Positions 6,005-40,108 of a DNA stretch of 64,000 bases are shown one piece after another. Positions within the stretch are counted from its first letter, which is position 1. Every line of letters starts with the position of its first letter. The translations under genes were made by a program, and so were the position numbers. The DNA comes from an uncultured bacterium (lineage in GTDB: Bacteria > Actinomycetota > Thermoleophilia > Solirubrobacterales > 70-9), in assembly GCA_965652565.1 (NCBI GenBank), contig CBFGWL010000003.1, forward strand, positions 22,457 to 86,456, in the 5' to 3' direction. Below the pieces are notes generated by a model. It searched no databases. It saw only the letters and a list, made by a program, of their open reading frames with translations, and was not told the DNA's origin.

Positions 6005-7294
6005 ATGAAGCTCGTGATGACCTACAAGGTCCGCGACGAGGAGGACGTCCTCGAGGCGAACCTCCGCTTCCACCGGGCGCTTGGCGTCGAGTTCTTCATC
6101 GTCACCGACAACGGCTCGGTCGACGGCACGGGGGAGATCCTGGAGCGCTACGAGCGCGCCGGGCTCGCGCACGTGATCTCCGAGCCCGCCGACGAGATGA
6201 GCTCGCGCGGCGACGAGTGGCTCACCCGCATGGCGCGCCTGGCGAGCGAGGAATACGACGCGGACTGGATCCTCCACAACGACGCCGACGAGTTCTGGTG
6301 GCCGCTCGAAGGTACGCTGCGCGACGCCCTCGCAGCGATTCCCGAGGAGTTCGGAGCGGTCTTCGCGCCCCGCGTGGAGTTCGTCGGCCGTCCCGACGGA
6401 CCCGGCACCTTCGCCGAACGCCTCACGGTCCGCGAGGCTCATGGGCGGCTGCGCCCCAAGGTGGCGCACCGCGCCCGCCCGGACGCCGTGGTGCTCCACC
6501 GCGGCGGGCACGACGTGGTCGCCGCCCCGACCGGCAACCCGCGCGACGCCCTGCGCCCGCCCGGGCGCGCCGTGCTCCGCACCGTCCGCGGCTCGGAGGC
6601 GGGCGACGATCGTGCCCTCGCGCCTGCGCCGATCTGGCCGATCCAGATCCTGCACTTCCCCGTGCGCTCGTTCGCCCAGTACCGCCGGCGCGTGGAACAC
6701 GGGCTGGCCTCGTTCCCGGACCAGAAGAGCTGGTCGCAGCTACGCCGCGCGTACGAGAACGACAAGCTCAAGTGGCTCTACAAGGAACTCACCTACGACG
6801 ACGAAGCCGTCGCCGAGGGCCTGCGCTCAGGGGAGCTCGTCGAGGACACCCGCCTCCGGGATTTCCTCGAGACCTGCCCCGATCCACTGTCCGACGGCTT
6901 CCGGGAAACGGCCCCGCCCCGTCCGAGCCCCGGCGAGCTCGAGCGTGAGCGCGCCGCCCTCGCCGCGGACGCGATGCGGGTCGTCGGCCGTCACTCGCGG
7001 CTCTTCGAGGTCCGCCTGGGCGAGTCGCGCGAGCGCATCCACGAGCTGGTCGACACGCTCGAGGAGACCCGCAACGACTACCGCGCCGAGCGGCGCAAGG
7101 CGAAGCGCCGCCGTGAGCGCATCAAGAAGCTGCGCAAGCGCGAGCGGGAGAAGCGCAAGCGGCTCCGCGCTGAGCTCCGTGCCGAGCGACAGCGCCCGTG
7201 GAGCAGGCTGCGCAAGCGCATCCGTGGCCTGCGCGCGCGCGTCGGCGCGCTGCTTGGGCGCGGCCCGGCGTCCGCGGACGACGCCGAGCGCTGA
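6005..7294 (+). CDS. GT2-like glycosyltransferase (paralog 1 of 3) with a basic coiled-coil C-terminal tail
   Basis: N-terminal MKLVMTYKVRDEEDVLEANLRFHRALGVEFFIVTDNGSVDGT, acidic motif NDADEFWWP and ILHFPVRSFAQYRRRV. Clear paralogs at 22309..23421 and 38439..39242. The tail is RKAKRRRERIKKLRKREREKRKRLRAELR. Confidence 0.7.
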   Translation: MKLVMTYKVRDEEDVLEANLRFHRALGVEFFIVTDNGSVDGTGEILERYERAGLAHVISEPADEMSSRGDEWLTRMARLASEEYDADWILHNDADEFWWPLEGTLRDALAAIPEEFGAVFAPRVEFVGRPDGPGTFAERLTVREAHGRLRPKVAHRARPDAVVLHRGGHDVVAAPTGNPRDALRPPGRAVLRTVRGSEAGDDRALAPAPIWPIQILHFPVRSFAQYRRRVEHGLASFPDQKSWSQLRRAYENDKLKWLYKELTYDDEAVAEGLRSGELVEDTRLRDFLETCPDPLSDGFRETAPPRPSPGELERERAALAADAMRVVGRHSRLFEVRLGESRERIHELVDTLEETRNDYRAERRKAKRRRERIKKLRKREREKRKRLRAELRAERQRPWSRLRKRIRGLRARVGALLGRGPASADDAER

Positions 7295-7454
7295 AGGGCG
7301 CAGCCGCCGCCCCGCGCCTGCCTGAGCCACGGGCGTAGCTCGCCGTCCGTGGCGCGGGCGGACGAGACGTGCCCGCGCACCCGTTATTGCTTGGGCAAGA
7401 CGACAGAAACCGCCATTTGATGCGCGATTCCGCTCGGAATGCGCGCGCTCAGAA

Positions 7455-7475
7455 CTTTAGTGATACTCACTTAGA
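7455..7475. promoter_or_regulatory. HAIR-like inverted repeat (candidate HspR operator) upstream of clpB
   Basis: CTTTAGT-N7-ACTTAGA compared with the actinobacterial HAIR consensus CTTGAGT-N7-ACTCAAG (left half 6/7, right half 4/7). It contains the perfect inner palindrome AGTGA-TAC-TCACT (7459..7471). Confidence 0.5.
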
Positions 7476-7479
7476 TTTC

Positions 7480-7509
7480 TTGCACAAAGCTGTAGAAAGG
7501 CGCTAAGCT
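7480..7509 (+). promoter_or_regulatory. candidate clpB promoter (TTGCAC-18 nt-TAAGCT)
   Basis: The -10 hexamer ends 7 nt before the ATG at 7517, and no SD is visible. This suggests a leaderless or near-leaderless transcript. Confidence 0.4.
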
Positions 7510-7516
7510 AACCGGC

Positions 7517-10114
<2,598 letters not shown>

Positions 10115-10228: not shown

Positions 10229-11452
10229 CTAGGGCCGCACCTGCGTGTGGAAGGTGCGGTTGTTCGCTGCGCTCTTGCCGACGTGCGCGAAGAGGTCCAG
10301 TCGCTTGGCGGTGCCCTCGCCGAACAGGCGGTGGGTGGCCTTCCACCCCCGCGGGGGCTTGACCACGCGAATGCGCCCCACCTTGGAGGCGGCGGGGTTG
10401 GTTCGCGTCACGAGGTAGCGGCCGTTGCGCTCCCAGAAGATCCAGAGTCGGCCGTTCTGACCGGTGGCGATCGAGACGTGCTCAGCGCCCCGAGCACGCT
10501 TGCCGGAGACGATTGCCCTCGCCTTGTTCGCCCCGACTCGCCAGAGCAGGATCTTGCGGGTCTTCGGGTAGCCCTTGCCGTAGGCGATCCAGGCGCCGGA
10601 CTTGCCCTTGCGCGCTGCGATCGCGGTGCGCTCCCGTTGGTAGCGGAAGCGGTTGCGGCCGCCAGCCGAGGAGCCCGGCGCGAACATCAAGGGGTCGAGT
10701 GGGCCGGACTGCGTCAGCATGCGCGCGTAGATCCCCTTCCCGCCGGAGTTGATCTGCTGCCAGCCGCCGTACACCGTCCCCTGGTCGTCGATGACGATCT
10801 CGGGCATGCCGATCCCCGTGACGCCAATGAGGTTCAGGTGCTTGGGCGGAAACGCGGGCCCGAAGGTGTACCCATGGGCGCCCGGGCCGGAGTCGCCCCA
10901 GGCGCCGACGCGCACGCCGCTCGTCGGCCGGGGGTCTGCGCCGGCGCCGATCCCGGCGCCGATATAGGCGGTGTCGACGTCCGCGGCAGCGAACGCCGGT
11001 GGGGTCCAGGTCTTCCCGCCGTCGTTGCTCTGTTTGAACAGGAGATAGCCGCTGAACGGCTCTCCCGGCGACGTCGAACGGATCCCGCTGAAGTAGATGC
11101 CGAGAATCTGATTCGAGCGGCTGAAGGTCACGTCCACGCTGCGGTTGATCGTCGTCCAATCGGACTCGAGCGTGCTCCTGGCCACCTTCTTCCCCCGCTT
11201 GTTGATGCGTACGTACCGGAGGGAGGCCTTCGTCCCGGTCCGCTGGTGGTAGGCCACGTGCAGGCGCCCGTCAAGCGTGCGTGCCACTCCGGCCTCCACG
11301 GCGTTTGGCCCCTTGCCGGTGATCGCGGTCCATTTGCCCGGTCCACCGGCGACCGCGGGCGGCGCCAGCGCAAGCGCGAGCGCCGCGGCGGCCGGCAACG
11401 TCGCGCACCAGCCTGCTCGGCGGGGAAACCGGGTCGCTGACGATTCGGACAA
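10229..11452 (-). CDS. secreted BNR/Asp-box (sialidase-like beta-propeller) protein
   Basis: Asp-box SNDGGKTWT and a signal-like N-terminus (RFPRRAGWCATLPAAAALALALAPPAVAG). The start is uncertain: TTG at 11452 is chosen here, and the ORF-track ATG at 11575 would overlap the divergent GT1 start. Confidence 0.55.
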   Translation of the reverse strand: MSESSATRFPRRAGWCATLPAAAALALALAPPAVAGGPGKWTAITGKGPNAVEAGVARTLDGRLHVAYHQRTGTKASLRYVRINKRGKKVARSTLESDWTTINRSVDVTFSRSNQILGIYFSGIRSTSPGEPFSGYLLFKQSNDGGKTWTPPAFAAADVDTAYIGAGIGAGADPRPTSGVRVGAWGDSGPGAHGYTFGPAFPPKHLNLIGVTGIGMPEIVIDDQGTVYGGWQQINSGGKGIYARMLTQSGPLDPLMFAPGSSAGGRNRFRYQRERTAIAARKGKSGAWIAYGKGYPKTRKILLWRVGANKARAIVSGKRARGAEHVSIATGQNGRLWIFWERNGRYLVTRTNPAASKVGRIRVVKPPRGWKATHRLFGEGTAKRLDLFAHVGKSAANNRTFHTQVRP

Positions 11453-14553: not shown

Positions 14554-14628
14554 GGGCTTGGCCGGGCCGCTCGCGCGGTGCAAGATAGGCTGCGACCGAA
14601 TGGCGGACCTGTCGACGGAGGAGGGACC

Positions 14629-14910
14629 ATGCCGACTTACGTAATGCTCACCAACCTGACCCCGAGCGGGGTGAACACGCTGAAGACCAACCCCAGCCGG
14701 GTGCAGGAGGTCAACAGCGAGGTCGAGGCGATGGGAGCGCGCGTCGTCAGCCAGTGGGCCACGCTCGGGCAGTACGACTTCGTGAGCGTCGTCGAGGCGC
14801 CCGACGACGAGACGATGGCGCGGATCTCCGTGGAGCTGGGCTCGCGCGGCACGATGACGAGCCAGACCCTCGCCGCCATCCCCAGCGACAAGCTCGCCGA
14901 GGCGCTTTAA
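14629..14910 (+). CDS. GYD-domain small protein
   Basis: [19 protein letters not shown]...[29 protein letters not shown] just upstream of the ATG at 14629. Confidence 0.7.
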
Positions 14911-14937
14911 GCGACGAGGGGCAGGGGCACGCGCACG

Positions 14938-16224
14938 GTGTCGCAGAGGGTTCTCGTCGTCGGATCCGGGGGTCGCGAGCACGCGATCGTCCGCGCGCTG
15001 GCGCGCTCCCCGCAGCAGCCGGAACTGCTGGCCGCGCCCGGCAACGCCGGCATCGCCGCGGACGCGCGCTGCCTCAGCGTGGGCGCCGAGGACGTGCAGG
15101 GCCTGGTCGACGCGGCGGTCGAGGAGAACGTCGACCTCGTCGTCGTCGGTCCCGAGGCGCCGCTCGTCGCCGGCCTGGTGGACGCGCTGGAGGCTGCCGG
15201 CGTCCCCGCCTTCGGGCCCACGGCGGAGGCCGCGCGACTGGAGGGCTCCAAGGTCCACGCCAAGGAGATCATGCGGGAGGCGGGCGTGCCGACCGCCTCG
15301 CACGTCGTACTCCGCACCCGTGAGGAGGCGCTGGAGCACCTCGCGTGCGCGCCCTACCCCGCGGTGCTCAAGGCCGACGGACTCGCCGCCGGCAAGGGCG
15401 TGATCATCTGCCAGACGGAGGCCGAGGCGCGCGAGGCGGTGGACGTGTTCTTCACCGAGCGCCGCTTCGGCGAGACGACCGTGGTGCTCGAGGACTTCCT
15501 CGAGGGCGAGGAGCTCTCGCTGCTCGCGCTCTGCGACGGGGAGAACGTGGTCCCGCTCGCGCCCGCGCAGGACTACAAGCGCATCTTCGACGACGATCGC
15601 GGCCCGAACACGGGCGGCATGGGCAGCTACTCGCCCGTACCGGGCATCGATGCGGCGCGGGTCGAGGAGATCGCCGACGCCGTGCATCGCCCCGTGGTCG
15701 AGCTGCTCCGGCGCCGCGAGTCCCCGTTCCACGGCGTCCTGTACGCGGGCCTGATGCTGACCGCGAGCGGGCCGAAGGTGCTCGAGTTCAACACCCGCTT
15801 CGGCGACCCCGAGACGCAGGCCGTGCTCCCGCGCCTCGAGTCCGATCTGCTCGAGCTCTTCCGCGCCGCGCGCGAGCCCGGCGGCCTGGCCGGGGTGGAG
15901 GCACGCTTCGACGAACGCTGGGCGGTGACGGTCGTCCTCGCCTCGGCCGGCTATCCGGCGAGTTCGTCGAAGGGAGACGTGATTGAGGGCGTCGAGGCGG
16001 CCGCCGCCCGCGACGGCGTCGAGGTCACGCACGCCGGCACCGCGCGTGACGCCGAGGGCCGGCTCGTCACCGCCGGCGGGCGCGTTCTCAACGTCACCGC
16101 GCTGGGCAGCGACGCGGCCGAGGCCCGCGCCCGCGCCTACGAGGCCGCGCGCGAGATCAGCTTCGAGGGCATGCAGATGCGCAGCGACATCGCCGCGCGC
16201 GCCGAGCGCGCGACGGCGGGCTAG
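14938..16224 (+). CDS. purD: phosphoribosylamine-glycine ligase
   Basis: [12 protein letters not shown] and an ATP-grasp core, full-length similarity pattern (428 aa). Confidence 0.95.
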
Positions 16225-16259
16225 CCCTCCCCGGAGACCCACCGACCAAGGAGACAAGC

Positions 16260-16760
16260 ATGGAATCAGGCGAGCGAGGCACCGCGACCGGCACCCAGGG
16301 CCCGGCGACGCCCACGGAGCCGATGCCCGATGTCGAGTCCGCCTTCGAGGAGATCGAGGTCGAGGCGCCGCTCGTCGGGATCATCATGGGCTCCAAGAAC
16401 GACAAGCCCAAGATGCAGCCCGCCGGGCAGGCCCTCGAGGACGCCGGCATCCGGTACGAGGTGCGCGTGATGAGCGCGCATCGCGACCCCGAGAAGGTCC
16501 GCGAGTACTGCCACGCGGCACGCATGCGCGGGCTCAAGGTGATCATCGCCGGCGCCGGCATGTCCGCGGCGCTGCCGGGCGTCGCCGCCGCCCACACCGA
16601 CCTGCCGGTGATCGGCGTGCCGATCCTGGGCAAGACGCTCGGCGGGCTCGATGCGCTGCTCTCGGTGGTGCAGATGCCGCCGGGCGTCCCCGTCGCATGC
16701 GTCGCCGTCGACGGCGCCAAGAACGCCGGCGTTTTGGCCGCGCGCATCATCAACGCCTAA
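16260..16760 (+). CDS. purE: N5-carboxyaminoimidazole ribonucleotide mutase
   Basis: VGIIMGSKNDKP...VMSAHRDPEKV...IIAGAGMSAALPGV. The N-terminal extension makes the start uncertain. Confidence 0.93.
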   Translation: MESGERGTATGTQGPATPTEPMPDVESAFEEIEVEAPLVGIIMGSKNDKPKMQPAGQALEDAGIRYEVRVMSAHRDPEKVREYCHAARMRGLKVIIAGAGMSAALPGVAAAHTDLPVIGVPILGKTLGGLDALLSVVQMPPGVPVACVAVDGAKNAGVLAARIINA

Positions 16761-16763
16761 GCC

Positions 16764-18065
16764 TTGATCCCCCGCTACACCCGCGAGCAGATCGGCGCCG
16801 TCTGGACGCAGCGGCGCAAGATGGAGGGCTGGCTCGAGGTCGAGCTCGCCGTGACCGACGCGCTCGCCGCCGAGGGCATCGTCCCCGAGGAGGCCGCCAG
16901 GGCCTGCCGCGAGCGCGCCTCGTTCGAGGTCGAGGCCGTCGAGGAGCGCGAGCGCGTCACGAACCACGACGTCGCCGCGTTCGTCGACGTCGTCGCGGCG
17001 TCGGTCGGCGAGGAGGGGCGCTGGATCCACTACGGCCTCACCTCCTCCGACGTGCTCGACACCGCGCTGGCGACCCAGCTCGTCGAGGCGGGACGCATCC
17101 TGGTTGAGGGTGCGCGCGCCTACCGCGACGCGCTCATCGACCGCGCGCTCGAGCACCGCGACACGGTCTGCATCGGGCGCACCCACGGCATCCACGCCGA
17201 GCCGACGAGCTTCGGGCTGCGCCTCGCCGGCTTCGCGTTCGAGGCCGACCGCAACCTGCAGCGGCTCGAACGCGCCTTCGAGCAGGCAGCCGTGGGCAAG
17301 CTTTCGGGCGCCGTCGGCACCTACGCGACGCTGCCGCCACGGATCGAGGCGCGCGTCATGGAGACGCTCGGGCTGCGCCGCGAGGACGCCTCGACGCAAG
17401 TCGTCCCGCGCGACCGCCACGCCGAGGTCCTGAGCGCGATCGCGCTCGCCGGCGCCGGGCTCGAGCGCTTCGCCACCGAGATCCGCAACCTGCAGCGGAC
17501 CGAGATGCGCGAGGTCGAGGAGCCGTTTCGCGCCGGGCAGAAGGGCTCGTCGGCGATGCCGCACAAGCGCAACCCGATCACCTGCGAGCGCATCACCGGG
17601 CTCGCGCGGGTGCTCCGCGGCTACGCCCAGACCGGGCTCGAGAACGTCGCGCTCTGGCACGAGCGCGACATCTCCCATTCCGGTGCCGAGCGCGTCGTGC
17701 TTCCCGACGCCACGATCGCGCTCGACTACATGCAGCACCTGGGGACGCGGGTCGCGCGCGACATGGTCGTCCACGCCGATCGGATGCGGGAGAACCTCGA
17801 GCTCACCTACGGAGCCGTCTTCAGTCAGCGGGCGCTCACCGCGCTCGTGAACGCCGGGCTCAGCCGCGACGACGCCTACCGCCTCGTCCAGCGCAACGCC
17901 CAGGACGCCTGGGACCAGCGGGTGCCGTTCCGCGAGCTGCTCGAGCGCGCGCTCGCCGAGACGCCGGACGCGCCGGCGGTCGACCTGGACGCGATCTTCG
18001 ACCCGGGCGCTTACCTGGCGAACGCCGGGGAGGTGTTCGAGCGCCTCGAGGCGCTGCGCGGCTAG
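16764..18065 (+). CDS. purB: adenylosuccinate lyase
   Basis: TTG start 4 nt after purE. (M)IPRYTR and the SSAMPHKRNP signature loop. Confidence 0.95.
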   Translation: MIPRYTREQIGAVWTQRRKMEGWLEVELAVTDALAAEGIVPEEAARACRERASFEVEAVEERERVTNHDVAAFVDVVAASVGEEGRWIHYGLTSSDVLDTALATQLVEAGRILVEGARAYRDALIDRALEHRDTVCIGRTHGIHAEPTSFGLRLAGFAFEADRNLQRLERAFEQAAVGKLSGAVGTYATLPPRIEARVMETLGLRREDASTQVVPRDRHAEVLSAIALAGAGLERFATEIRNLQRTEMREVEEPFRAGQKGSSAMPHKRNPITCERITGLARVLRGYAQTGLENVALWHERDISHSGAERVVLPDATIALDYMQHLGTRVARDMVVHADRMRENLELTYGAVFSQRALTALVNAGLSRDDAYRLVQRNAQDAWDQRVPFRELLERALAETPDAPAVDLDAIFDPGAYLANAGEVFERLEALRG

Positions 18066-18131: not shown

Positions 18132-18470
18132 ATGAGTAATGGGGTCACCGCAAGCGTCCGCCGCGTTCGCTTTCCCACCGCGCTCACGTTGCTGGGCACG
18201 ATCCTGATAGCCGTTGGGGCCGGGCTGCTCGCGGCAGAGCTCTCGACCGTCCAGGCGCAGGAGATCGTCGCCGGCGCGGGCAGCGCCGACACCGCGCCGT
18301 TCAACCAGGGCGCCGCCGGCGCCCAACTGCCAACCGCCGCCGTGGCCGGTGACACGGGTGACTCGACCGGCCTTCTGCCGTTCACCGGCGCCGTCGCGAT
18401 CCCGATGATCGTCGTCGGGTTGATCGCCGTGGCGAGCGGCTTCCTGCTGCGGCGACGAGCCGAACGCTGA
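18132..18470 (+). CDS. very small LPXTG-type sortase-substrate-like protein
   Basis: N-terminal TM/signal segment, a roughly 45-aa Ala/Gly-rich mature part, then LPFTG, a hydrophobic helix and an RRRAER tail. Confidence 0.6.
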   Translation: MSNGVTASVRRVRFPTALTLLGTILIAVGAGLLAAELSTVQAQEIVAGAGSADTAPFNQGAAGAQLPTAAVAGDTGDSTGLLPFTGAVAIPMIVVGLIAVASGFLLRRRAER

Positions 18471-18482: not shown

Positions 18483-20645
18483 TTGGACGCGACCGCTGGG
18501 CTGCTGGGCTCCATCGCGGGGTTCGCGGCGGTCTGGGTGCTGCCCGGGTTCGCGCTCGGCGCGCTGGCCGACCGCCTCGGCACTCGAACCGCACCGCGCC
18601 CGGCGGTTGAGCTCGCCCGCGCGCTCGTTCTCAGCCTCGCCTTCCTCGCCGTCGTCGGCGGCACGCTGCTCGCGCTCCGGTGGTTCGGCGGCGCCCAGCT
18701 TGCCGTGCCGGTTCTCCTCACAGCCGTGGCCGGGCTCCCGGCCGCGTTGCGCTGGGCGCAAGACGCTGTCCAACCATGGTGGCGCACGCTGGCCCTGCTC
18801 GCGCTGGCGCTGCCCTGGCTGGCGTCGGCGGCCACCACGAAGGCCACTCCCTCGCACTCCTACCAGTGGTACTACTGGGAGCTCGGTCGGCAGCTCAGCG
18901 AAGCGGGCGGAGTGCCGAGCTTCGTACTCGAGTTCGGGGAGCAGGTTCGCTGGCACCCGGACTACGTCTTCTTCAGTGTGGGCAGTGAGGCCTACCGCTG
19001 GCTGACCGGGCCACTCGGCGAGACCGCGGCGATCGTCGGCTGGCGCGCGCCGGTGGCCCTGACCGCGCTGGCCCTCGCTTACGCGACGCTGCGGCTGTGG
19101 CTGACGCGCGCTCCCGCGATCATCGGCTGTGCGGCGCTGGCCGCCTCCACGTACTTCCTCGTCAAATTCGACGCCTACAAGCCGGAGTCGCTGGGCGCGG
19201 TTCCCGCGCTCGCCGCGCTGGTGCTCGCCGTGAGCGGGGTACGCGCACGCTCGGCCGGCGCGCTCCTGCTCGCGGGCGCGGGCGCGGGCCTGGCGATGGG
19301 GGTCCACGGCATCGCCGCCGCGGTAATCGGCGCGATCGGAGGGATCGCCGCGCTTGTCGAGTGGCGGATGCGCCGGTCCGAGCCCGCGCTTGCGTTCCGA
19401 GCGCTCCTGGCAGCGGCCGCGCTCACGATCACCGTGATCATCGCGACCGGGCTCGCGTTGCAGGGGCGTGCGGTCGTGGCGAGCGACGCCGCCAATCCGG
19501 CCCTCGGTCGCGGCGAGGACCCGACCTGGGCCTTCCTGCGCCGCCACGAGGGCGAGTTCGGAGATCGCTTCCCGCCCGCCGCCACCACACGGGCTGTCGC
19601 GTCGATCCGGCGTCCGTGGCCCGCCGCGCTCGTGCGCGACGGCGGCTGGGCGCTCTTGCTCGCGGCCATCGCGGCTGCGCTCGTCGCCGCCCTGCGCAGC
19701 GGCCGCCCCCGCACCCGGCGCGCCGCCGCGATCCTGCTCGCCGCGCTCGCCCTGCTCGCGCTCGCCGGCCTCGCATTCGCGCTCGCATTCGACACGTTCA
19801 TCCCGCAGCACACGGGAATGACCCGGATGGGCGCCTACTCCTACCTGGTGCTGGCGCTGGCCGTCGGGGTGGCCGCGCAGCTCGGCTGGTCGTGGGCCCG
19901 CCGGCGCTTCGGGGCCGTACCGTCCGGCCTCGCGGCGGGCGTGCTTGCGTTCGCGCTGACTTGGTCGGTCGCGACCGCCAACACGACCCTGGCGGGCTCG
20001 CGGGAGCTGGGACCGGCAGGCGAGCAGGTACTCGAGCGCCTGCGTGCGGAGGAGGCTCCGGGCACGGTGCTGAGCAACGCCAGCACGCGCGGCCTGATCG
20101 AGTTCGCGGCGCGCCGCGAGGCGCCCATCGAGGGCCGCCAACCGGTCATCGAGGACCCCGGGTTCCTGCGCGCGGCCAACGCCCGGCTGGAGCAGGTCGA
20201 GCGCTTCTTCAACAACGCCGGCCTGGATGGCCCGCGAGCCGATCGCGCGGTGCTCGACCAGCTCGACGTGGGCTGGATCATCGCGGCCGACCCGCCGGAG
20301 GCGCTCGGCACGCCCTTCAGCTTCAGCGTTCCTGCCGGCCTCGCCGAGCGACTTGCCCGGGAACCCGGGCTCAGCGAGGCGTTCGCCGCCCCCGGGCTCA
20401 CGGTGTTCCGGGTGGCGGGCGCAGGCCCCGTCGCTCGGGTCGGCTCCGCGCAAGAACTTGCCGCGCGCTGGGGGCTCGCCCTCGGCGCCACTTTGCTGAT
20501 CACGACAACGCTCGCCCAGCTCGCACGCGCGCGGGATGGGCGCACGAACGAAAGGAGTACCGATGAGGACCACGACGCTGGCCGGGGCCGCCGCTCTGGT
20601 GCTTACAGCCACCGCGTTGCTGGGCTGTGGCGGTGGCGGGGATGA
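18483..20645 (+). CDS. large polytopic membrane protein (possible GT-C-like glycosyltransferase) with a C-terminal soluble domain
   Basis: 720 aa with more than 10 hydrophobic segments, followed by a roughly 200-aa hydrophilic C-terminal domain. TTG start. The 3' end overlaps the next gene by 83 nt, so the stop or frame is uncertain. The function call is inference only. Confidence 0.5.
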   Translation: MDATAGLLGSIAGFAAVWVLPGFALGALADRLGTRTAPRPAVELARALVLSLAFLAVVGGTLLALRWFGGAQLAVPVLLTAVAGLPAALRWAQDAVQPWWRTLALLALALPWLASAATTKATPSHSYQWYYWELGRQLSEAGGVPSFVLEFGEQVRWHPDYVFFSVGSEAYRWLTGPLGETAAIVGWRAPVALTALALAYATLRLWLTRAPAIIGCAALAASTYFLVKFDAYKPESLGAVPALAALVLAVSGVRARSAGALLLAGAGAGLAMGVHGIAAAVIGAIGGIAALVEWRMRRSEPALAFRALLAAAALTITVIIATGLALQGRAVVASDAANPALGRGEDPTWAFLRRHEGEFGDRFPPAATTRAVASIRRPWPAALVRDGGWALLLAAIAAALVAALRSGRPRTRRAAAILLAALALLALAGLAFALAFDTFIPQHTGMTRMGAYSYLVLALAVGVAAQLGWSWARRRFGAVPSGLAAGVLAFALTWSVATANTTLAGSRELGPAGEQVLERLRAEEAPGTVLSNASTRGLIEFAARREAPIEGRQPVIEDPGFLRAANARLEQVERFFNNAGLDGPRADRAVLDQLDVGWIIAADPPEALGTPFSFSVPAGLAERLAREPGLSEAFAAPGLTVFRVAGAGPVARVGSAQELAARWGLALGATLLITTTLAQLARARDGRTNERSTDEDHDAGRGRRSGAYSHRVAGLWRWRG

Positions 20646-21093: not shown

Positions 21094-21384
21094 TCAGCGC
21101 GTGCGCGCGAAGCGCTCGACCGCCGCGATCAGCTCGTCGACCTTCTCGTCGGCCTCCTCGCCGCCGCGCTGGATCGCGCCGCGAACGCAGTGGTCCGTGT
21201 GCTCGGCGAGGAGCTTGAGTGCGACGCCGTCGAGCGCGCGCGAGATCGCCCCGATCTGCGTCAGCACGTCGATGCAGTACGCGTCCTCCTCGACCATCCG
21301 CGTCACGCCACGGACCTGGCCTTCGATCCGGGCGAGCCTGCGGAGCACGGCCTCGCGCTCCTCGCTGTATCCGGGATGATCCAT
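21094..21384 (-). CDS. csoR: CsoR/RcnR-family metal-sensing repressor
   Basis: 96 aa. [21 protein letters not shown] and HTDHC give a C-H-C ligand pattern like Cu(I)-sensing CsoR. Confidence 0.85.
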
Positions 21385-21411: not shown

Positions 21412-21434
21412 CCCGTCTGTACCATCGGCAGGCC

Positions 21435-22292
21435 TTGACGACCTCCCTTGCAGATCTGCGCCTGCTGTCCAGCGGCAAGGTCCGCGAGATGTACCAGCTC
21501 GAGGACGACCTGCTGATGGTCGCCTCGGATCGCATCTCCGCGTACGACGTCGTCCTGCCCACGCCGATCCCGGACAAGGGCCGCGTGCTGACGCAGATGT
21601 CGGTGTTCTGGTTCGAGACGACCGGCCACATCTGCCCCAACCATCTGATCTCCCAGGAGGTGCCCGAGGAGGTGCGCGGGCGCGCCCTGCGCGTGCGCAA
21701 GCTCGACATGTATCCCGTCGAGTGCGTGGTCCGCGGCTATCTCTCGGGATCGGGCTGGAAGGAGTACCGCGCGTCGCAGTCCGTCTGCGGCATCGAGCTG
21801 CCGGCCGGGCTGCGCGAGTCGGACAGGCTGCCCGAGCCGATCTTCACGCCCGCGACCAAGGCCGAGGAGGGCGAGCACGACGAGAACGTCGACTTCGAGC
21901 GGGCCGTCCAGATCGTCGGGGACCGCGGCCTGATGGAGCGCCTGCGCGACATCTCGATCGCGCTGTACACGCACGCCGCCGAGCACGCCGCGGAGCGGGG
22001 GATCATCATCGCCGACACCAAGTTCGAGTTCGGCGCCGCCGCCGACGCGGAGATCGTGCTCGCCGACGAGGTGCTTACGCCCGACTCCTCGCGGTTCTGG
22101 CCGGCCGACGCGTACGAGCCGGGGCGCGGGCAGTCGTCCTTCGACAAGCAGTACGTGCGCGACTGGCTCGACGAGTCGGGCTGGGACCACAACCCGCCGG
22201 GGCCCGAGCTCCCCGCGGAGGTCGTCGCGAACACGCGGACGAAGTACGTCGAGGCCTACGAGCGCATCACCGGCCGTTCGCTCGACGGTTGA
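21435..22292 (+). CDS. purC: SAICAR synthase
   Basis: TTG start in frame. GKVREMY...[14 protein letters not shown]...DTKFEFG. The ORF-track start at 21219 runs antisense through csoR and is not used. Confidence 0.93.
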
Positions 22293-24477: not shown

Positions 24478-24708
24478 GTGAAAGCGCGCGTTCTGATTCG
24501 TCCGAAGGAAGGCATCCTCGACCCGCAGGGCAAGGCGGTCGAACGGGCGCTCCCGGCGCTTGGGTTCAGCGGGGTGAGCCACGTGCGGGTGGGGCGCCTG
24601 GTGGAGCTCGAGGCCGAGGATGCGTCGCGGCTCGACGAGCTCTGCGAGAAGCTGCTCGCCAATCCGCTCATCGAGGACTACGAGATCGTCGAGCTCCAGG
24701 AGGCCTAG
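24478..24708 (+). CDS. purS: FGAM synthase PurS subunit
   Basis: 76 aa. KARVLIRPKEGILDPQGKAVERAL...NPLIEDYEI. Confidence 0.9.
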   Translation: MKARVLIRPKEGILDPQGKAVERALPALGFSGVSHVRVGRLVELEAEDASRLDELCEKLLANPLIEDYEIVELQEA

Positions 24709-28171: not shown

Positions 28172-28264
28172 GCCGACGCTGCCGCGGCGCGTCTGCCACC
28201 ATAAGCGGCGTCCGCGGCGGCCCCGGCATCGCTCGCCGCCCGCCCTCTACCCTCCTTTTCCTCT

Positions 28265-34052: not shown

Positions 34053-34069
34053 GCGAAGGGACGTACACC

Positions 34070-34856: not shown

Positions 34857-37085
34857 GTGACCCAGCAGCCCGAGACAGCATCGAAGCACCGCGAGCTCGG
34901 GCTCACCGACTACGAGTACGAGCGCATCTGCGACCAGCTCGGGCGGGCGCCGAACGACGTCGAGCTGGCGATGTTCTCGCTGCTGTGGTCGGAGCACTGC
35001 GCGTATAAGCACTCGCGCAAGCTCCTGCGCCGGTTGCCGACCGAGGGCCCGCGGGTCGTCATGGGCCCGGGCGAGAACGCGGGCGCCGTGGACGTCGGAG
35101 AGGGCTACGCGGTCGCGTTCAAGGTCGAATCGCACAACCATCCGAGCGCCGTCGAGCCCTTCCAGGGGGCGGCCACCGGTGTCGGCGGGATCCTGCGCGA
35201 CGTCTTCGCGCTCGGCGCGCGACCCATCGCGCTGCTCGACTCCCTGCGCTTCGGGGAGCTCGATTCCGAGCGCTCGCGCTACCTCTTCGATCACGTCGTC
35301 GCCGGCATCGGCCACTACGGGAACTCGATCGGCGTCCCCACCGTAGGCGGCGAGGTCTACTTCGAGCCTCCCTACGAGCAGAACTGCCTCGTGAACGCGA
35401 TGTGCGTGGGCTTCGCGCGGACCGATGACATGATCCGCGCCGCCGCCGCGGGTGTCGGCAACATCGTCGTTCTGATGGGCGCCGCGACCGGGCGCGACGG
35501 CATCGGCGGCGCCTCGGTGCTCGCCTCCGCCGAGCTCGAGGAGGGCGACTCCTCGAAGCGCCCGACCGTGCAGATCGGCGACCCGTTCGAGGAGTCGAAG
35601 CTCCTGGAGTGCTGCCTCGAGCTGTTGCGCGAAGGCCTGCTGGTCTCCCTGCAGGACCTCGGCGCGGCGGGGCTCACGTCCTCGGGCGGCGAGATGGCGT
35701 CGGCCGGCGGAGTCGGCATCGACATCGACGTCGCCAAAGTGCCGTTGCGCGAGGCGGACATGGAGCCCTTCGAGATCATGGTCTCCGAATCGCAGGAGCG
35801 GATGCTCGCGGTCGTCGAGCCCGACAAGGTCGAGCGCGTGATCGAGGTCTGCCGGCGCTGGCAGACGGGCGCCGCGGCGGTGGGCGAGATCACCGACACC
35901 GGGCACTTCCGGGTGCTGCGCGACGGCGAGGTGGTGGGCGACATGCCGGTCGCCGCGCTCGTCGACGGCTGTCCGCTGTACGACCTCGAGCCCGCCGAGC
36001 CCGAGGGCTGGCTCTACGGCGAGCGGGCGGCAACTCTCGAGAACGACGCGTCGCCGGCCGAGACGCTGGCCGCGATCCTGGCCGCGCCCTCCGTGGCGTC
36101 GAAGCGCTGGGCGTTCGAGCAGTACGACTCGATCGTCGGGTCGCGCACGGTCCGCCGTCCGGAGAGCGCGGACGCCGCCGTGCTCACGCTCCCCGAGGCC
36201 GACACCGCGATCGCGGTATCGATCGACGGCAACGGTCGCCGCGTGGCATGCGACCCCTACCGCGGCACGATCGAGGTGCTCCTGGAGTGCGCGCAGAACC
36301 TCGCCTGCGTCGGCGCGGAGCCGCTCGGGCTCACCAACTGCCTGAACTTCGGCAACCCCGAGAAGCCCAATGTCGCCTGGCAGCTCGACCGCTCCGTGCA
36401 GGCGCTCGCCGACGGTTGCCGCGCCCTGGACATCCCGGTCGTCGGCGGCAACGTCTCGCTCTACAACGAGACCGACCGCGGCCCGATCTACCCGACGCCC
36501 GTGATCGGGCTCGTCGGCGAGCTGCCCGATCCCGGCGTGGCGCCGGGGGTCGCGCTGCGCCCCGGCGACGCCGTCGCGATCGCCGGCCCCTTCCAGCCGG
36601 ACCTCGCGGGCTCCGAGTTCGCCAAGCAGCGCGGCGCGCTCGGCCCGGGCCTGCCCGAGGCCGACCTCGACGCCCACCGGGCTGCGCTCGCTTTCATCCG
36701 CGGCGCTGCGCGCTCCGGGCGCGTGCGCGCCATCCACGACATCAGCGACGGTGGCTTCGCCGCGGCGCTGGCCGAGATGGCGATCGCGGGGGAAGTCGGG
36801 GTCGCGGTGGACGCCGGCGGCTTTCCGGGATTCAGCGGGCTCGACCCCGACACGGCGCTCTTCGGCGAGGGTCCGGGCGGGTACCTCTTGGCCGGCGGCC
36901 AAAAGGAGCTGCAGGAGCTCGCCGCCGATGCCGAGCGAGCCGGCGTGCCGATGACCCTGATCGGGGCCCAGGAAGGCGACGGCGTGCGGATCGCGGTTGG
37001 CGACGCGACGCTCGAGCTGCCGCTCGCCCGGGCGGCCGAGGCCTGGAACTCGCTCCCGGACCGCATGGGGCCGACGCAGCCTTGA
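34857..37085 (+). CDS. purL: FGAM synthase large subunit PurL
   Basis: 742 aa. LWSEHCAYKHS, KVESHNHPSAVEPFQGAATGVGG and the duplicated AIR-synthase-like fold pattern. Confidence 0.96.
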   Translation: MTQQPETASKHRELGLTDYEYERICDQLGRAPNDVELAMFSLLWSEHCAYKHSRKLLRRLPTEGPRVVMGPGENAGAVDVGEGYAVAFKVESHNHPSAVEPFQGAATGVGGILRDVFALGARPIALLDSLRFGELDSERSRYLFDHVVAGIGHYGNSIGVPTVGGEVYFEPPYEQNCLVNAMCVGFARTDDMIRAAAAGVGNIVVLMGAATGRDGIGGASVLASAELEEGDSSKRPTVQIGDPFEESKLLECCLELLREGLLVSLQDLGAAGLTSSGGEMASAGGVGIDIDVAKVPLREADMEPFEIMVSESQERMLAVVEPDKVERVIEVCRRWQTGAAAVGEITDTGHFRVLRDGEVVGDMPVAALVDGCPLYDLEPAEPEGWLYGERAATLENDASPAETLAAILAAPSVASKRWAFEQYDSIVGSRTVRRPESADAAVLTLPEADTAIAVSIDGNGRRVACDPYRGTIEVLLECAQNLACVGAEPLGLTNCLNFGNPEKPNVAWQLDRSVQALADGCRALDIPVVGGNVSLYNETDRGPIYPTPVIGLVGELPDPGVAPGVALRPGDAVAIAGPFQPDLAGSEFAKQRGALGPGLPEADLDAHRAALAFIRGAARSGRVRAIHDISDGGFAAALAEMAIAGEVGVAVDAGGFPGFSGLDPDTALFGEGPGGYLLAGGQKELQELAADAERAGVPMTLIGAQEGDGVRIAVGDATLELPLARAAEAWNSLPDRMGPTQP

Positions 37086-37156
37086 GCGACAACCGCGAAG
37101 TGCTCGGGCTCGAGATCTGGGTCCGGGTCCCCGACGACGAACGCCCTCGCCGCAAC

Positions 37157-37447
37157 ATGCGGCTACTGCTCAACTCGATCGCGATCGTTGCGGTCCTCGA
37201 CGTCCTGCTGCTCATCCCGCTCGTCTGGGCATCGCTCACCGACAACGACGGGCTCATCAGCGTGCTCGGCCCGATCCACGGGTTCGGCTTCATGCTGCTC
37301 GTCGGCATGTGCGTGCGCGGGGTCAGCAACCAGTGGTGGGGCTGGTGGTATCCGCTCTTCATCATCGTCACGCTGGGGCCGATCGGCTCGCTGGTCGGCG
37401 ACCTCTTCGTTCGCCGCCGCTACAACGCCGCGGTCGCGCGGAGCTAG
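37157..37447 (+). CDS. small integral membrane protein (DUF3817-like)
   Basis: 96 aa with three hydrophobic helices and a GPIHGFGFMLLV motif. Only the 3' end of track ORF 35609..37447 is taken as coding. Confidence 0.5.
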   Translation: MRLLLNSIAIVAVLDVLLLIPLVWASLTDNDGLISVLGPIHGFGFMLLVGMCVRGVSNQWWGWWYPLFIIVTLGPIGSLVGDLFVRRRYNAAVARS

Positions 37448-37450
37448 CCC

Positions 37451-38413
37451 ATGCGCGCGGTGGTCACGGGCGCGGGCGGGTTCATCGGCTCGCGCCTCGC
37501 CGCCCGGCTGCTCGACGACGGGCACGAGGTGCTCGGCATCGACAGGCTCTCCGATTACTACGAGCCGCAGCGCAAGCGTGCGGCGCTCGAGCGCCTCGCC
37601 GAGCGACCCGGCTTCCGGTTTTTGATCGGCGACCTGAACGAGCTCGACCTGAACGCCGCCTTTGCGGGCGCCGATACGGTCTTCCACCTCGCCGCGCAGC
37701 CCGGCGTGCGGTCGAGCTGGGGCCGCGAGTTCGGCATCTACCTCGCGGACAACGTCCACGCCACGCAGCGCATCCTCGACGCGCTCAGCGCCGCGCGTGG
37801 CCCGCGCCTGGTCTTCGCCTCCTCATCGTCCGTCTACGGCGACGCCGAGCGCTACCCCACGGACGAGACCGCCCCGCCGCAGCCGATCTCGCCGTACGGG
37901 CTCACCAAGCTGGCCGCCGAGCACCTCTGCCGGATGTACGCGCGTTCCGGGGTGGAGACGGTGGTGCTGCGCTACTTCACCATCTTCGGCCCCGGTCAGC
38001 GCCCCGACATGGCGTTCTGCCGGTTCATCGACGCCGCGCTTGGGGGCCGCGAGGTCGAGGTGCTCGGTGACGGCCGGCAGGTGCGCGACTTCACCTACGT
38101 CGACGACGCGGTCGCGGCCACGATCGCGGCCGGCGAGCGGGGCGTCGCCGGCGAGACCTACAACGTCGCGGGCGGCACCCAGGCGAGCGTGCTCGACGTG
38201 CTCGCGGCCCTCGAGGAGTTGGTGGGTGCGCCCGTGAAGCGCCGGCACCTGCCCGCCGCCGCCGGTGACGTCAAGCGCACGAGCGCCGATTCAGCGAAGG
38301 CTCGCCGCGAGCTCGGGTTCAATCCGCAGGTGAACCTGTTCGACGGTCTGCGCCGCCAGCTCGCCGCCCACCCGGGTGCGGGCCGCGAGCCGGGTCCGCT
38401 CATAGAGCAGTAG
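37451..38413 (+). CDS. NAD-dependent nucleotide-sugar epimerase/dehydratase (SDR)
   Basis: VVTGAGGFIGSRL Rossmann motif and catalytic YxxxK in SPYGLTKLAAE. Starts 3 nt after the preceding stop. Confidence 0.85.
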   Translation: MRAVVTGAGGFIGSRLAARLLDDGHEVLGIDRLSDYYEPQRKRAALERLAERPGFRFLIGDLNELDLNAAFAGADTVFHLAAQPGVRSSWGREFGIYLADNVHATQRILDALSAARGPRLVFASSSSVYGDAERYPTDETAPPQPISPYGLTKLAAEHLCRMYARSGVETVVLRYFTIFGPGQRPDMAFCRFIDAALGGREVEVLGDGRQVRDFTYVDDAVAATIAAGERGVAGETYNVAGGTQASVLDVLAALEELVGAPVKRRHLPAAAGDVKRTSADSAKARRELGFNPQVNLFDGLRRQLAAHPGAGREPGPLIEQ

Positions 38414-38438
38414 CACCGCCGCTCGCGCCACGCCTCCG

Positions 38439-39242
38439 CTACTCCTCTCCCCGGAGCGCGCGCAGGAAGTCGCGCAGGCGCGTGTCCTCCACCGCGTCCT
38501 CTGCGTCCGCCGCGGCATCGTAGGCCTCGCGCAGCCGGCCCGCGCGCCAGAGCTCGTACTGCTGCTTGCGCGCCCTGCCGACGCGCTCGGGGAGGTGCGG
38601 TTGCTCGGCGAAGGCGCTCCCGATCTGCACGACGCGGCGCTCGAACTGCGGGTAGCTGCGCATCTGGAAGTGCAAGACGTCGATCACGTCGGTCCGCAGC
38701 GTCTTGCCGACGCGCGGCGGCAGGCGCCGGTGGTTGCCCTTGCGGATGCGAAGCTCCGGGTGGGCGCGATGGACGATCTTGGGCGGCAGGGGCCTGCCGG
38801 CGGCGTTCAGGGAGACGCGCTCGCGGCGGGTCATCCGCTCCCACCAAGGCCCCGGCCCCTCGGGCGGCGGCAGGAAGTTGTAGCGCTGGGCGACGACCGC
38901 GCCCACCTTCGCCGGCAGGCCGGCGAGCATCTCCTTGAGCGTCCCGGAGCCCGGCAGCCAGAACTCGTCCCCGTCGTTGGGCAGCACCCAGTCCGCGCCC
39001 TCCTCGTGGACGGCGATGTGGACCATCTCGTTGACCCAGGGCTCTTGGTCATACACCCCGGGCTGGTGGATGAGCCGCAACAGGCCCCGCGCCGCGTACT
39101 CCTCGAGAATCTCCGTCGTGCCGTCGCTCGACCGGTTGTCCATGACGACGGCGAAATCGACGCCCTGCGCGAAGTGGAAGTCCAGGTTCTCCCGGACGAT
39201 GTCCGCCTCGTCGCGGACGAGAAGCGCCATGACCAAGCGCAT
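38439..39242 (-). CDS. GT2-like glycosyltransferase (paralog 3 of 3, lacks the basic tail)
   Basis: MRLVMALLVRDEADIVRENLDFHFAQGVDFAVVMDNRSSDGT, PNDGDEFWLP and VLHFQMRSYPQFERRV. Confidence 0.7.
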   Translation of the reverse strand: MRLVMALLVRDEADIVRENLDFHFAQGVDFAVVMDNRSSDGTTEILEEYAARGLLRLIHQPGVYDQEPWVNEMVHIAVHEEGADWVLPNDGDEFWLPGSGTLKEMLAGLPAKVGAVVAQRYNFLPPPEGPGPWWERMTRRERVSLNAAGRPLPPKIVHRAHPELRIRKGNHRRLPPRVGKTLRTDVIDVLHFQMRSYPQFERRVVQIGSAFAEQPHLPERVGRARKQQYELWRAGRLREAYDAAADAEDAVEDTRLRDFLRALRGEE

Positions 39243-39373
39243 GGACGCTATGCGCGGGTGCGCGTTGAGCCCGCGCGCGCCCGGTAACCTCGGCCGCCCG
39301 CGATCGAAGTGCGATTGGCCGAGTGGATCATGGTCGTCGACGATCTGGCGCGGTCACGGGTAGGTCCCCACAG

Positions 39374-40108
39374 ATGCCCAACGCCCTCCCATCATTGAGC
39401 GTGCGGATCGTAGCCGTGCTCGGCATGCACCGCAGCGGCACCTCGGCGCTCGCCGGCACCCTCGCGGAGCTCGGCGCCGACCTCGGCGACGCGCGCGAGG
39501 ACGTCCGCTTCCAGCCCAAGGGCAACAACGAGAGCCGGGCCATCGTGAAGATCCACAACCGGATCCTGCGCCGCAACGACGCGACCTGGTGGCGCCCGCC
39601 GACCCGGCCCGTGGAAATCCCACGGCGCCTCCGCCGGCGGCTGCGGGAGGTCCTGGCGACGTTCGAGGGGCCGCTCATCGGGGTCAAGGACCCGCGCATG
39701 CTGCTCGTCTACGACCTCTGGCGCGACCTTCCGGTGACCCCAATCGGCGTCTTTCGCAACCCGGTGGACGTCACGCGCTCGCTGCAGGCGCGAGCCAATG
39801 CCCGGGGCGAGCCGCTCGAGCTGCTCGACGACGAGCGCTGCCACGCGCTGTGGTCGCACTACAACCGCCTCCTGTTGGCCGAGCACGAGCGCGCGCCGTT
39901 CCCGCTGCTCAACTTCGACGAGGCCGAGTCCTTCGTGCCGCGGACCATCGCGGCCCTCCGCGCCCACGGCATCGAGGCGAGCGAGCCGCCGGGCTACTTC
40001 GAGCCCCACCTCACCACCAACCGGACCGCGGACTGGCGGGATGCGGTCGAGGAGCCGGTCGCCGCCCTCTACGACCAGCTCGTGGAGCGCGCCGAGCGGC
40101 CGCTCTAG
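39374..40108 (+). CDS. divergent sulfotransferase-fold protein
   Basis: IVAVLGMHRSGTSALAG (5'-PSB-like P-loop) and GVFRNPVDVTRSL (3'-PB-like). The start could be the ORF-track start at 39323 or the ATG at 39374. Confidence 0.55.
   Translation: MPNALPSLSVRIVAVLGMHRSGTSALAGTLAELGADLGDAREDVRFQPKGNNESRAIVKIHNRILRRNDATWWRPPTRPVEIPRRLRRRLREVLATFEGPLIGVKDPRMLLVYDLWRDLPVTPIGVFRNPVDVTRSLQARANARGEPLELLDDERCHALWSHYNRLLLAEHERAPFPLLNFDEAESFVPRTIAALRAHGIEASEPPGYFEPHLTTNRTADWRDAVEEPVAALYDQLVERAERPL

Follow-up and report, generated by a model that had tools for sequence, protein, structure and literature searches.

The 64,000-nt stretch of DNA analysed here (hereafter the window), from an uncultured soil actinobacterium of the order Solirubrobacterales, encodes between positions 6005 and 40108 ten proteins with a sulfotransferase (ST) fold, three GT4 glycosyltransferases (GTs; GT1a-GT1c), three GT92-like glycosyltransferases of the GT-A fold (GT2a-GT2c) and one SDR epimerase (Table 1). 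We consider it rather probable that these genes form a single accessory system, which is dispersed into the junctions of a block of housekeeping and purine biosynthesis (pur) genes, is transcribed in part together with them and sulfates an oligo- or polysaccharide. The ST set comprises seven enzymes similar to TPST and CurM (family A: ST1 and ST4-ST9), one similar to heparan-sulfate 3-O-sulfotransferases (ST2) and two divergent ST-fold proteins (ST3 and STL). A preliminary description of this DNA had arrived at the same totals, grouped into five modules, and Pfam scans returned the same numbers, with STL assigned by its predicted structure. Its gene listing was amended: ST1 and GT2c lie on the minus strand, and a PMT_2-like, an LPXTG-like, two RTX, a BNR-like and a beta-helix gene were added.

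Accessory genes in the junctions of one conserved gene block

Genes were called from third-position GC content (GC3) and frame plots, and their proteins were scanned with Pfam and NCBIfam. The Pfam scan covered every GC3-called gene in 1-48702 except dnaK, grpE, dnaJ, purL and the small open reading frame (ORF) at 18132-18470. The GC content is 0.70-0.74 across the whole window, and module and backbone genes do not differ in GC3. The backbone genes run from 1603 to 46815, all on the plus strand, in the order dnaK-grpE-dnaJ-hspR-clpB-GYD-purDEB-purC-purSQ-purL-purF-recQ-purNH. The union of the dnaK operon, clpB, the GYD gene, purDEBCSQLFNH and recQ (between purF and purN) into one co-directional block, seen at loci L008-L055, is itself notable.

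For comparison, 10 kb on either side of purQ was taken from 80 species-level genomes and annotated by BLAST and by hidden Markov models (HMMs) built from the window proteins. In this survey most Solirubrobacterales and Thermoleophilia have a compact block free of ST and GT genes (for instance L010, L018, L028, L033, L034, L041, L043 and L048); ST/GT inserts were found in L014, L020, L015 and L045 and in minimal form in L025 and L016. Since the backbone is present without inserts in most Solirubrobacterales, what had been described as five housekeeping operons is a single conserved syntenic block whose variable junctions are occupied by accessory genes. The proposal that each module lies downstream of an operon of its own is therefore not well supported. 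Module 3 does follow purC, as described, but GT2b-ST3 is embedded within the operon between purC and purS and not merely downstream of it. The remaining positions agree with those first reported: GT2a begins 86 nt past hspR; module 2 lies just upstream of GYD-purD-purE-purB, with 24 nt from the end of ST2 to GYD; the ST/GT1 array of module 4 is at purQ, the start of ST4 lying 14 nt inside it; and in module 5 the epimerase gene follows the DUF3817 gene after a 3-nt gap.

An HMM search of all window ORFs found no ST-fold gene in the 30 kb beyond 6005-40108. For this reason, and because the placement recurs in related genomes, we do not ascribe the position of the inserts to chance. The genes do not make up a self-contained dedicated cluster, being split over at least five junctions here and, in relatives, contiguous yet inside the pur operon.

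Sulfotransferases

Nine of the ten STs exceed the gathering score of Pfam Sulfotransfer_3 and/or Sulfotransfer_1, with E-values of 1e-36 to 1e-41 for ST4-ST7. The closest solved structures to family A are TPST1/2 and the ST domains of CurM and OLS (Sulfotransfer_3; E about 1e-16), with which it has in common the RSGTT loop that binds the 5'-phosphosulfate (5'-PSB), a Glu-containing PETHF/EETR segment and the RDGR motif that binds the 3'-phosphate (3'-PB). Identity to those enzymes is low, there is no acceptor peptide or acyl carrier protein (ACP) here, and the partners are glycosyltransferases and a sugar-nucleotide epimerase. RSGTT, PPETHF and RDGRD are intact in all seven family-A proteins; the two cofactor-binding motifs read RRSGTT and RDPRA in ST3, and the 5'-PSB loop is QRAGTS in ST2 and HRSGTS in STL. 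ST1 of module 2 is 48-54% identical to ST4-ST9 of module 4. One-to-one orthologues of family-A STs in relatives share 78-95% identity, against 47-57% between paralogues; the paralogues are old and individually conserved, and probably non-redundant.

The top PDB match of ST2 was an uncharacterised bacterial ST (3rnl), followed by heparan-sulfate glucosamine 3-O-sulfotransferases (Sulfotransfer_1), its best named solved relatives (E 1.5e-12). In contrast to these, ST2 is bacterial and predicted to be cytoplasmic, and no glycosaminoglycan synthase was identified. A sequence search of the PDB with ST3 gave nothing useful, and NCBIfam returned no specific name for the ST, GT2 or STL proteins.

STL has no Pfam match above the cut-off (E 0.065). 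When its family was aligned with the family-A STs by hhalign, the PSB loop alone was matched, with 17% probability, so that structure prediction was needed. The AlphaFold2 (AF2) model has a predicted local distance difference test (pLDDT) score of 91.1 and a predicted template modelling (pTM) score of 0.89, and the 28 top-ranked PDB entries found with Foldseek were all sulfotransferases or the ST-fold retinol dehydratase (probability about 1.0, TM 0.4-0.54). Judged by this model, STL belongs to a sulfotransferase-fold family that has no Pfam model and 663 unnamed homologues. Homology searches returned at least 7,053 sequences for family A, at least 2,912 for the GT2-like family (GT2x) and at least 663 for STL; those with a named source are from Solirubrobacterales. 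The ST4 protein was found letter-for-letter on metagenome contigs, and its name-bearing homologues likewise belong to this order. Our search of the literature on sulfotransferases of Solirubrobacter/Solirubrobacterales found nothing relevant.

Glycosyltransferases and epimerase

GT1a, GT1b and GT1c, from modules 2 and 4, are 52-57% identical to one another and contain Glycos_transf_1 or Glyco_trans_1_4 domains; their PDB matches were weak (MshA-like, WaaB). GT2a, GT2b and GT2c, from modules 1, 3 and 5, share 38-46% identity and an invariant D93-x-D95-E96 (the DxD within DADEFW). A sequence search of the PDB with GT2a gave nothing useful. Foldseek matched its model to GalS1, ThuS/SunS, SpsA, TarS and collagen galactosyltransferase, and the GT92 galactan synthase GalS1 superposed best (root-mean-square deviation [rmsd] 4.7-6.3 over about 248 columns, vs. 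18 for ThuS). GT2a resembles GalS1 and the Glyco_tranf_2_4 family in its GT-A fold and conserved DxD, yet differs from GalS1 in a long extra C-terminal helix of 87 residues and in having no membrane anchor.

Among PDB chains the epimerase matched 6zl6 (E 2.4e-71) and MoeE5 (E 8.3e-61) well ahead of the best chain named UDP-glucose 4-epimerase (E 8.4e-45) and of E. coli GalE (about 1e-29). Entries 6ZL6 and 6ZLA we take to be the UDP-glucuronate (UDP-GlcA) 4-epimerase of B. cereus. MoeE5 is a UDP-glucuronate 4-epimerase (PMC12338863), and the window protein matches it far better than it does GalE or dTDP-glucose dehydratases. There is, however, no UDP-glucose dehydrogenase in the window, and the specificity given here is a prediction.

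The same enzymes occur together in related genomes

The dispersed modules are supported as one accessory enzyme system by paralogue families that cross the modules, by fusions of GT2 and ST, by contiguous clusters in relatives and by linkage of the enzymes outside the pur block. The proposal of a single distributed pathway in the preliminary description thus stood in this respect: across genomes the enzymes stay together while their position shifts, the opposite of the unrelated distributions that it had named as counter-evidence.

The 89% relative (L095 and L139) keeps the whole layout, except that by best-hit assignment no orthologue of ST6 was found in L139; it is also lacking in L092 and L014. 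The 78% relative (L087, L092) has GT2a after hspR, GT1a-ST1 before GYD, ST3 before purS, the ST/GT1 array after purQ and GT2c-STL after purL, and is without GT2b, ST2, ST6, the epimerase and the PMT-like and RTX genes. Two proteins, P0131 (730 aa) and P0178 (735 aa), are fusions of a GT2-like domain with Sulfotransfer_3. All four GT2a homologues inspected lie in the block: P0125, the closest at mid-distance, and P0196, P0163 and P0183, which were picked for their long contigs (54-58% identity to GT2a). The latter three are located between purC and purS, in the layout purC-ST<-ST2>-GT2-GT2<-GT2-(epimerase or GT2)-purS-purQ, followed by a DxD protein, STL and more STs before purL. Similarly, L093 reads purC-ST1<-ST2>-GT2a-GT2c<-GT2a'-epimerase-purS-purQ...STL, with best-hit orthologues of modules 1, 2 and 5 at 44-57% identity; such orthologues are contiguous at purC|purS and purQ|purL in L090, L093, L094, L098, L101 and others. 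Metagenome loci were collected with the GT2x alignment, so that part of the sample was chosen for carrying GT2x; counting homologues that are 45% or more identical and lie on contigs of 4 kb or longer, 21 of 27 have a backbone gene and 22 of 27 an ST on the same contig. Positions vary further: the GT2-ST3 pair follows purQ instead of preceding purS in L116, L120 and L126, and L015 has ST-ST2-GT1a-GT2a ahead of purC. In L144 an ST/GT2/epimerase cluster has no pur gene within 10 kb, and therefore the enzymes stay linked regardless of the pur context.

Should the junctions be generic permissive insertion sites, the five modules could be unrelated chance cargo. The same junctions do hold unrelated genes elsewhere (P450, methyltransferase, CAP-domain, invasin-like, CsoR); many genomes have 1-6.6 kb without an ST/GT match, mainly at purB|purC and purL|purF; the interrupted pur clusters of Streptomyces and Mycobacterium also show several-kb gaps between pur genes; and the PMT-like, LPXTG-like, RTX and beta-helix genes of the window are lineage-specific cargo of this kind. 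Yet the modules have paralogues in common, GT2+ST fusions exist, other genomes carry this gene set as one cluster, GT2x homologues lie in the block in 21 of 27 cases and the ST, GT2 and epimerase genes are together even outside it. We thus judge the chance-cargo explanation very unlikely; it is largely refuted for the ST, GT and epimerase genes and holds for the non-enzymatic cargo.

In a neighbour-joining (NJ) tree of purC and purQ, all insert-rich genomes fall into one clade, interleaved with insert-free lineages, which favours one acquisition followed by several losses and local reshuffling. The system would have been inserted into the pur block a single time, in the ancestor of one Solirubrobacterales clade; many genomes would have retained it as a contiguous cluster at purC-purS and purQ-purL, and several sublineages would have lost it. 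In the lineage of the window it would have grown by tandem duplication (of a GT4+ST unit and of ST6) and spread over at least five junctions by local rearrangement. The GT4+ST unit (GT1b-ST8, GT1c-ST9) of 2.05 kb is tandemly duplicated, with repeat spacings of 2046 and 2049 nt. A mobile genomic island was considered and rejected: there is no flanking tRNA, integrase, flanking repeat or deviant composition, and the long repeats all reflect coding paralogy. Descent with local rearrangement explains the embedding most economically.

Two further kinds of gene were seen beside the enzymes in relatives. Sulfatase genes (PF00884) are present in L093 (15927-19877, purQ|purL) and L094 (19509-21083, after purL), and none in the window; their position beside STs suggests a cycle of sulfation and desulfation. 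In the contiguous form of the cluster, a protein of 305-312 aa with no Pfam match and a DxD-like FIDGDAFP motif is encoded on the strand opposite to purQ, overlapping its end (L090 16727-17644, L093 13188-14126, L094 15436-16353, all minus); it has no counterpart in the window.

Transcription

From purC to ST9, 13 genes are co-directional, separated by 16, -4, 25, 4, -14, 28, -20, 93, 61, -4, -4 and 40 nt. The order purC-GT2b-ST3-purS-purQ-ST4...ST9 is thus probably one transcript, by which part of the system would be co-expressed with purine biosynthesis. Such same-strand, short-gap arrangement does not extend to ST1, GT2c or the minus-strand genes at 10229-11362 and 40132-41439. The idea that the modules ride on housekeeping promoters is accordingly plausible for purC to ST9, and perhaps for GT2a and the epimerase, but not for ST1/ST2 and GT2c/STL: these pairs are head-to-head, and would have promoters of their own.

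The start codons of ST1 (minus) and ST2 (plus) overlap in the sequence CCATGG at 13737-13740, so that each gene must have its promoter within the coding region of the other, unless the mRNAs are leaderless. This divergent pair is kept in L090 (9152-9177), L093 (6942-6990) and L094 (9120-9146), where the genes are 24-47 nt apart. As ST2 ends 24 nt upstream of GYD-purDEB, the housekeeping genes there may depend on an accessory promoter. A scan for the HAIR consensus bound by HspR gave only three matches, each with 3 mismatches; all are inside coding regions and are no more than expected by chance. An Rfam search of the window returned only a tRNA and a thiamine pyrophosphate (TPP) riboswitch, and no purine or ZTP riboswitch.

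Predicted product

No N-terminal signal-like or hydrophobic segment was seen in the first 35 residues of the ST and GT proteins, and all enzymes of the system are predicted to be cytoplasmic. From nucleotide sugars, including UDP-galacturonic acid (GalA), the GTs would build an oligo- or polysaccharide on some acceptor, and different STs would O-sulfate this glycan at several positions, using 3'-phosphoadenosine-5'-phosphosulfate (PAPS). The product is likely a multiply O-sulfated glycoconjugate that contains GalA or another uronic acid and is built in the cytoplasm. We base this on the epimerase, nearest to UDP-glucuronate 4-epimerases, on ST2, nearest to heparan-sulfate 3-O-sulfotransferases, on the superposition of GT2a on GalS1 and on the sulfatases in relatives.

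Several observations weigh against the reading of one partly co-transcribed, glycan-sulfating system. The cluster contains no acceptor, priming transferase, polymerase, flippase or PAPS-synthesis gene. The Pfam scan of called genes found no Wzx/Wzy, priming transferase or cysC/cysDN in the window, as the preliminary description had stated, and no flippase, polymerase, chain-length regulator or priming phosphoglycosyl transferase among the scanned genes of 1-48702; only the MsbA-like ABC exporter, outside 6005-40108, and the sub-threshold PMT_2-like protein were seen. The family-A STs resemble protein-tyrosine sulfotransferases and the acyl-ACP sulfotransferase CurM to the same degree, and no less than any carbohydrate enzyme, and the top structural matches of GT2a include the peptide S-glycosyltransferases ThuS and SunS. 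With regard to transcription, a hairpin between ST6 and ST7 (28172-28264; -38.8 kcal/mol, z -2.5, matched in stability by 1 of 200 shuffles) has a pyrimidine-rich tail and may act within the array as a terminator, an attenuator or a site of processing; together with hairpins after GT2a (7318-7365) and after ST9, it may break the proposed transcripts. Consensus scans of 5-44 kb for sigma-70 promoters and intrinsic terminators gave no more sites than shuffled sequence. As to shared history, relatives of GT2a are over-represented in the metagenome sample, and an NJ tree of two proteins is crude and does not separate a single gain with losses from repeated gain.

Some of these observations would fit a system that modifies proteins or peptides, with TPST-like STs acting on tyrosines and SunS/ThuS-like GTs on secreted proteins such as the RTX or LPXTG proteins. 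The closest solved relatives of family A include TPST1/2 and tick TPST, with RSGTTL..MLDAHP..EET/PET motifs in common; ThuS, SunS and collagen galactosyltransferase head the Foldseek matches of GT2a; two Tyr/Asp-rich RTX proteins are encoded between ST9 and purL; and there is no lipid-carrier or export machinery. We nevertheless regard a protein target as unlikely: the 78% relative retains most enzymes yet has none of the RTX, LPXTG and PMT genes, no conserved precursor gene was found, the CurM ST matches family A equally well, ST2 is related to heparan-sulfate enzymes, the epimerase acts on nucleotide sugars, and GT2a superposes better on GalS1 than on ThuS.

The product could also be a small sulfated and glycosylated metabolite, for example a sulfoglycolipid or a compound derived from a nucleoside, that is made and kept in the cytoplasmic membrane or at its surface; the link to pur genes would then reflect common use of adenine nucleotides or PAPS. 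The apparently soluble, cytoplasmic enzymes, the want of a polymerase or flippase, the turnover suggested by sulfatases in relatives and the persistence of the pur association across the clade agree with such a product, and the nearest named bacterial family is NoeE, the Nod-factor fucose sulfotransferase (E 2e-11, far below the cut-off). Lipid, nucleoside-tailoring and polyketide or nonribosomal peptide synthesis genes are absent, however; a set of ten STs and at least six GTs is large for one small molecule; and descent with local rearrangement explains the pur link more simply, as the cluster is also found away from pur genes (L144). This makes the small-metabolite alternative improbable in our view. 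Of similarly low probability is a functional meaning of the pur-operon placement, in which PAPS-consuming poly-sulfation, perhaps of proteins, would be coupled to purine synthesis and track purine/ATP status. If true, sulfation of the envelope or of secreted products would follow purine/ATP status in a clade of soil Solirubrobacterales, TPST-like and SunS-like enzymes might act on proteins instead of a classical polysaccharide, and the pathway would lack the lipid-carrier and export machinery that usually goes with sulfation. A sulfated oligo- or polysaccharide is the reading we favour.

Cargo and neighbouring genes

The coordinates of all features are collected in Table 1. The LPXTG-like protein (112 aa) has a signal peptide, an Ala/Gly/Thr-rich middle, an LPFTG motif, a transmembrane segment and an RRRAER tail. 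It resembles a sortase substrate and is encoded directly upstream of the gene for the 720-aa PMT_2-like protein; the two may be a glycoprotein and its glycosyltransferase. The 89% relative (L139) has the PMT_2-like gene and the one after it (20536-21075); in the 78% relative (L092) CsoR directly follows purB, with no room for these two or for the LPXTG-like gene. The RTX proteins are 55% identical to each other, Tyr/Asp-rich, with RTX nonapeptide repeats and a C-terminal CGPGDDEA...CETV motif; unlike type-I-secreted RTX proteins, they have N-terminal signal peptides. In L008 and L015, too, distant RTX-like genes lie in junctions of the pur block. The RTX pair, the LPXTG-like and the PMT-like proteins were rejected as acceptors or partners of the enzymes and taken as separate cargo, being absent from the 78% relative that retains most enzymes. 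The BNR-like gene accompanies GT1a-ST1 in relatives.

On the far side of purH, about 11 kb from the last ST gene, lies cysPTWA, a complete sulfate importer locus with genes for a CysA-like ATPase, CysW, CysT and a sulfate-binding protein. Sulfate supply by cysPTWA and export by the MsbA-like transporter are possible, which makes both nearby candidates for these roles. Farther on, the TPP riboswitch is found inside the over-long ORF 56516-58147, hence the real start of thiO lies downstream of it.

Table 1. Features of the window: enzyme system, housekeeping backbone, cargo and neighbouring genes
Feature	Position	Strand	Evidence and remarks
GT2a, GT92-like GT-A (module 1)	6005-7294	+	Glyco_tranf_2_4 E 1.7e-15; AF2 pLDDT 86; Foldseek; invariant DADEFW
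GT1a, GT4 (GT-B) (module 2)	11574-12653	+	Pfam; 52-53% identity to GT1b/c
ST1, TPST/CurM-like, family A (module 2)	12843-13739	-	Sulfotransfer_3 E 1.6e-40; RSGTT, PPETHF, RDGRD motifs
ST2, heparan-sulfate-3-O-sulfotransferase-like (module 2)	13738-14553	+	Pfam; PDB 3-OST-3A1 E 1.5e-12
GT2b, GT92-like GT-A (module 3)	22309-23421	+	Pfam; 46% identity to GT2a
ST3, divergent (module 3)	23418-24452	+	Sulfotransfer_3 E 1.4e-19; RRSGTT, RDPRA; 4-nt overlap with GT2b
ST4, family A (module 4)	25386-26300	+	Pfam
ST5, family A (module 4)	26329-27285	+	Pfam
ST6, family A (module 4)	27266-28171	+	Pfam
ST7, family A (module 4)	28265-29203	+	Pfam
GT1b, GT4 (module 4)	29265-30347	+	Pfam
ST8, family A (module 4)	30344-31204	+	Pfam
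GT1c, GT4 (module 4)	31201-32295	+	Pfam
ST9, family A (module 4)	32336-33268	+	Pfam
SDR epimerase, closest to UDP-glucuronate 4-epimerases (module 5)	37451-38413	+	Pfam; PDB sequence matches
GT2c, GT92-like GT-A (module 5)	38439-39242	-	Pfam
STL, ST-fold, family without Pfam model (module 5)	39374-40108 (alternative start 39323)	+	AF2 and Foldseek
dnaK, grpE, dnaJ, hspR (MerR family)	1603..5918	+	GC3; Pfam for hspR; order conserved in relatives
hspR	5394-5918	+	
clpB	7517..10114	+	Pfam
GYD, purD, purE, purB	14578..18065	+	Pfam
purC (approximate start)	21414..22292	+	Pfam SAICAR_synt; frame plot
purS	24478-24708	+	
purQ	24713-25399	+	
purL	34857..37085	+	Homology to purL of relatives
purF, recQ, purN, purH	41457..46815	+	Pfam
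Secreted protein, weak BNR/sialidase-like signal	10229..11362	-	Orthologues in L087, L092, L095
Small LPXTG-like protein, lineage-specific cargo	18132..18470	+	Translation
Polytopic membrane protein, possible GT-C (PMT_2), lineage-specific	18483..20645	+	Pfam E 6.6e-5, 23.6 bits vs. cut-off 26.1
CsoR-like metal-sensing repressor, common at purB|purC	21094..21384	-	Pfam; also in L092-L094
Two paralogous secreted RTX-repeat proteins, lineage-specific cargo	33378-34052, 34070-34771	+	Pfam HemolysinCabind; absent in L092
DUF3817 small membrane protein	37157..37447	+	Pfam
Beta-helix protein, cargo	40132..41439	-	Pfam Beta_helix
MsbA/PglK-like ABC exporter half-transporter	46831-48702	-	Directly after purH; sole export candidate near system
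Glycoside-hydrolase-like protein	48985-50199	+	Glyco_hydro_cc E 3e-8; between ABC exporter and tRNA-Lys
tRNA-Lys	50255		Only tRNA in window; beside cysPTWA
Rrf2-family regulator	50384-50842	+	Beside cysPTWA
Sulfate ABC importer cysPTWA	51006-54769	-	CysT, CysW pass NCBIfam equivalog cut-offs
thiG	55502-56323		After thiO
TPP riboswitch	57729-57815	-	55.6 bits vs. gathering 54.3; inside ORF 56516-58147

Comparison with known systems

In bacteria, sulfated glycoconjugates are regarded as uncommon beyond cyanobacteria and marine taxa. The ten intact STs within 34 kb, together with the homologue counts given above, suggest that heavy sulfation is common, and unstudied, in abundant soil Actinomycetota. 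Because its genes lie together in some genomes and dispersed through the block in others, the system offers a natural test case for how accessory pathways embed in essential operons; at some positions, housekeeping genes may have come to depend on read-through from accessory genes.

Interrupted purine gene clusters with unrelated genes in between are known from Actinobacteria. In M. tuberculosis, for example, the order is purB...purC...purQ...purL...purF, with unrelated genes interspersed. The Streptomyces and Mycobacterium loci of our survey resemble the window in that the pur order is held and unrelated genes lie in the junctions; here, in contrast, the genes carried in the junctions form one coherent enzyme system, found there repeatedly across a clade.

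Genes for STs and GTs that make a sulfated glycoconjugate are a known kind of system. The synechan (xss) sulfated exopolysaccharide cluster of Synechocystis PCC 6803 (PMC8205485) and the sulfated capsule clusters of marine bacteria (PMC11641403, PMC11766843) likewise combine several PAPS-type STs with several GTs and sugar-nucleotide enzymes, and a sulfated glycan is the presumed product. Those clusters are self-contained and include Wzx/Wzy or ABC export, chain-length and priming components, whereas the system described here has none of these parts, has ten STs and is interleaved with dnaK, clpB and pur genes. What is new is its abundance and expansion in soil Solirubrobacterales, the STL fold family and the clade-wide embedding in the pur operon, which in the window extends over at least five junctions.

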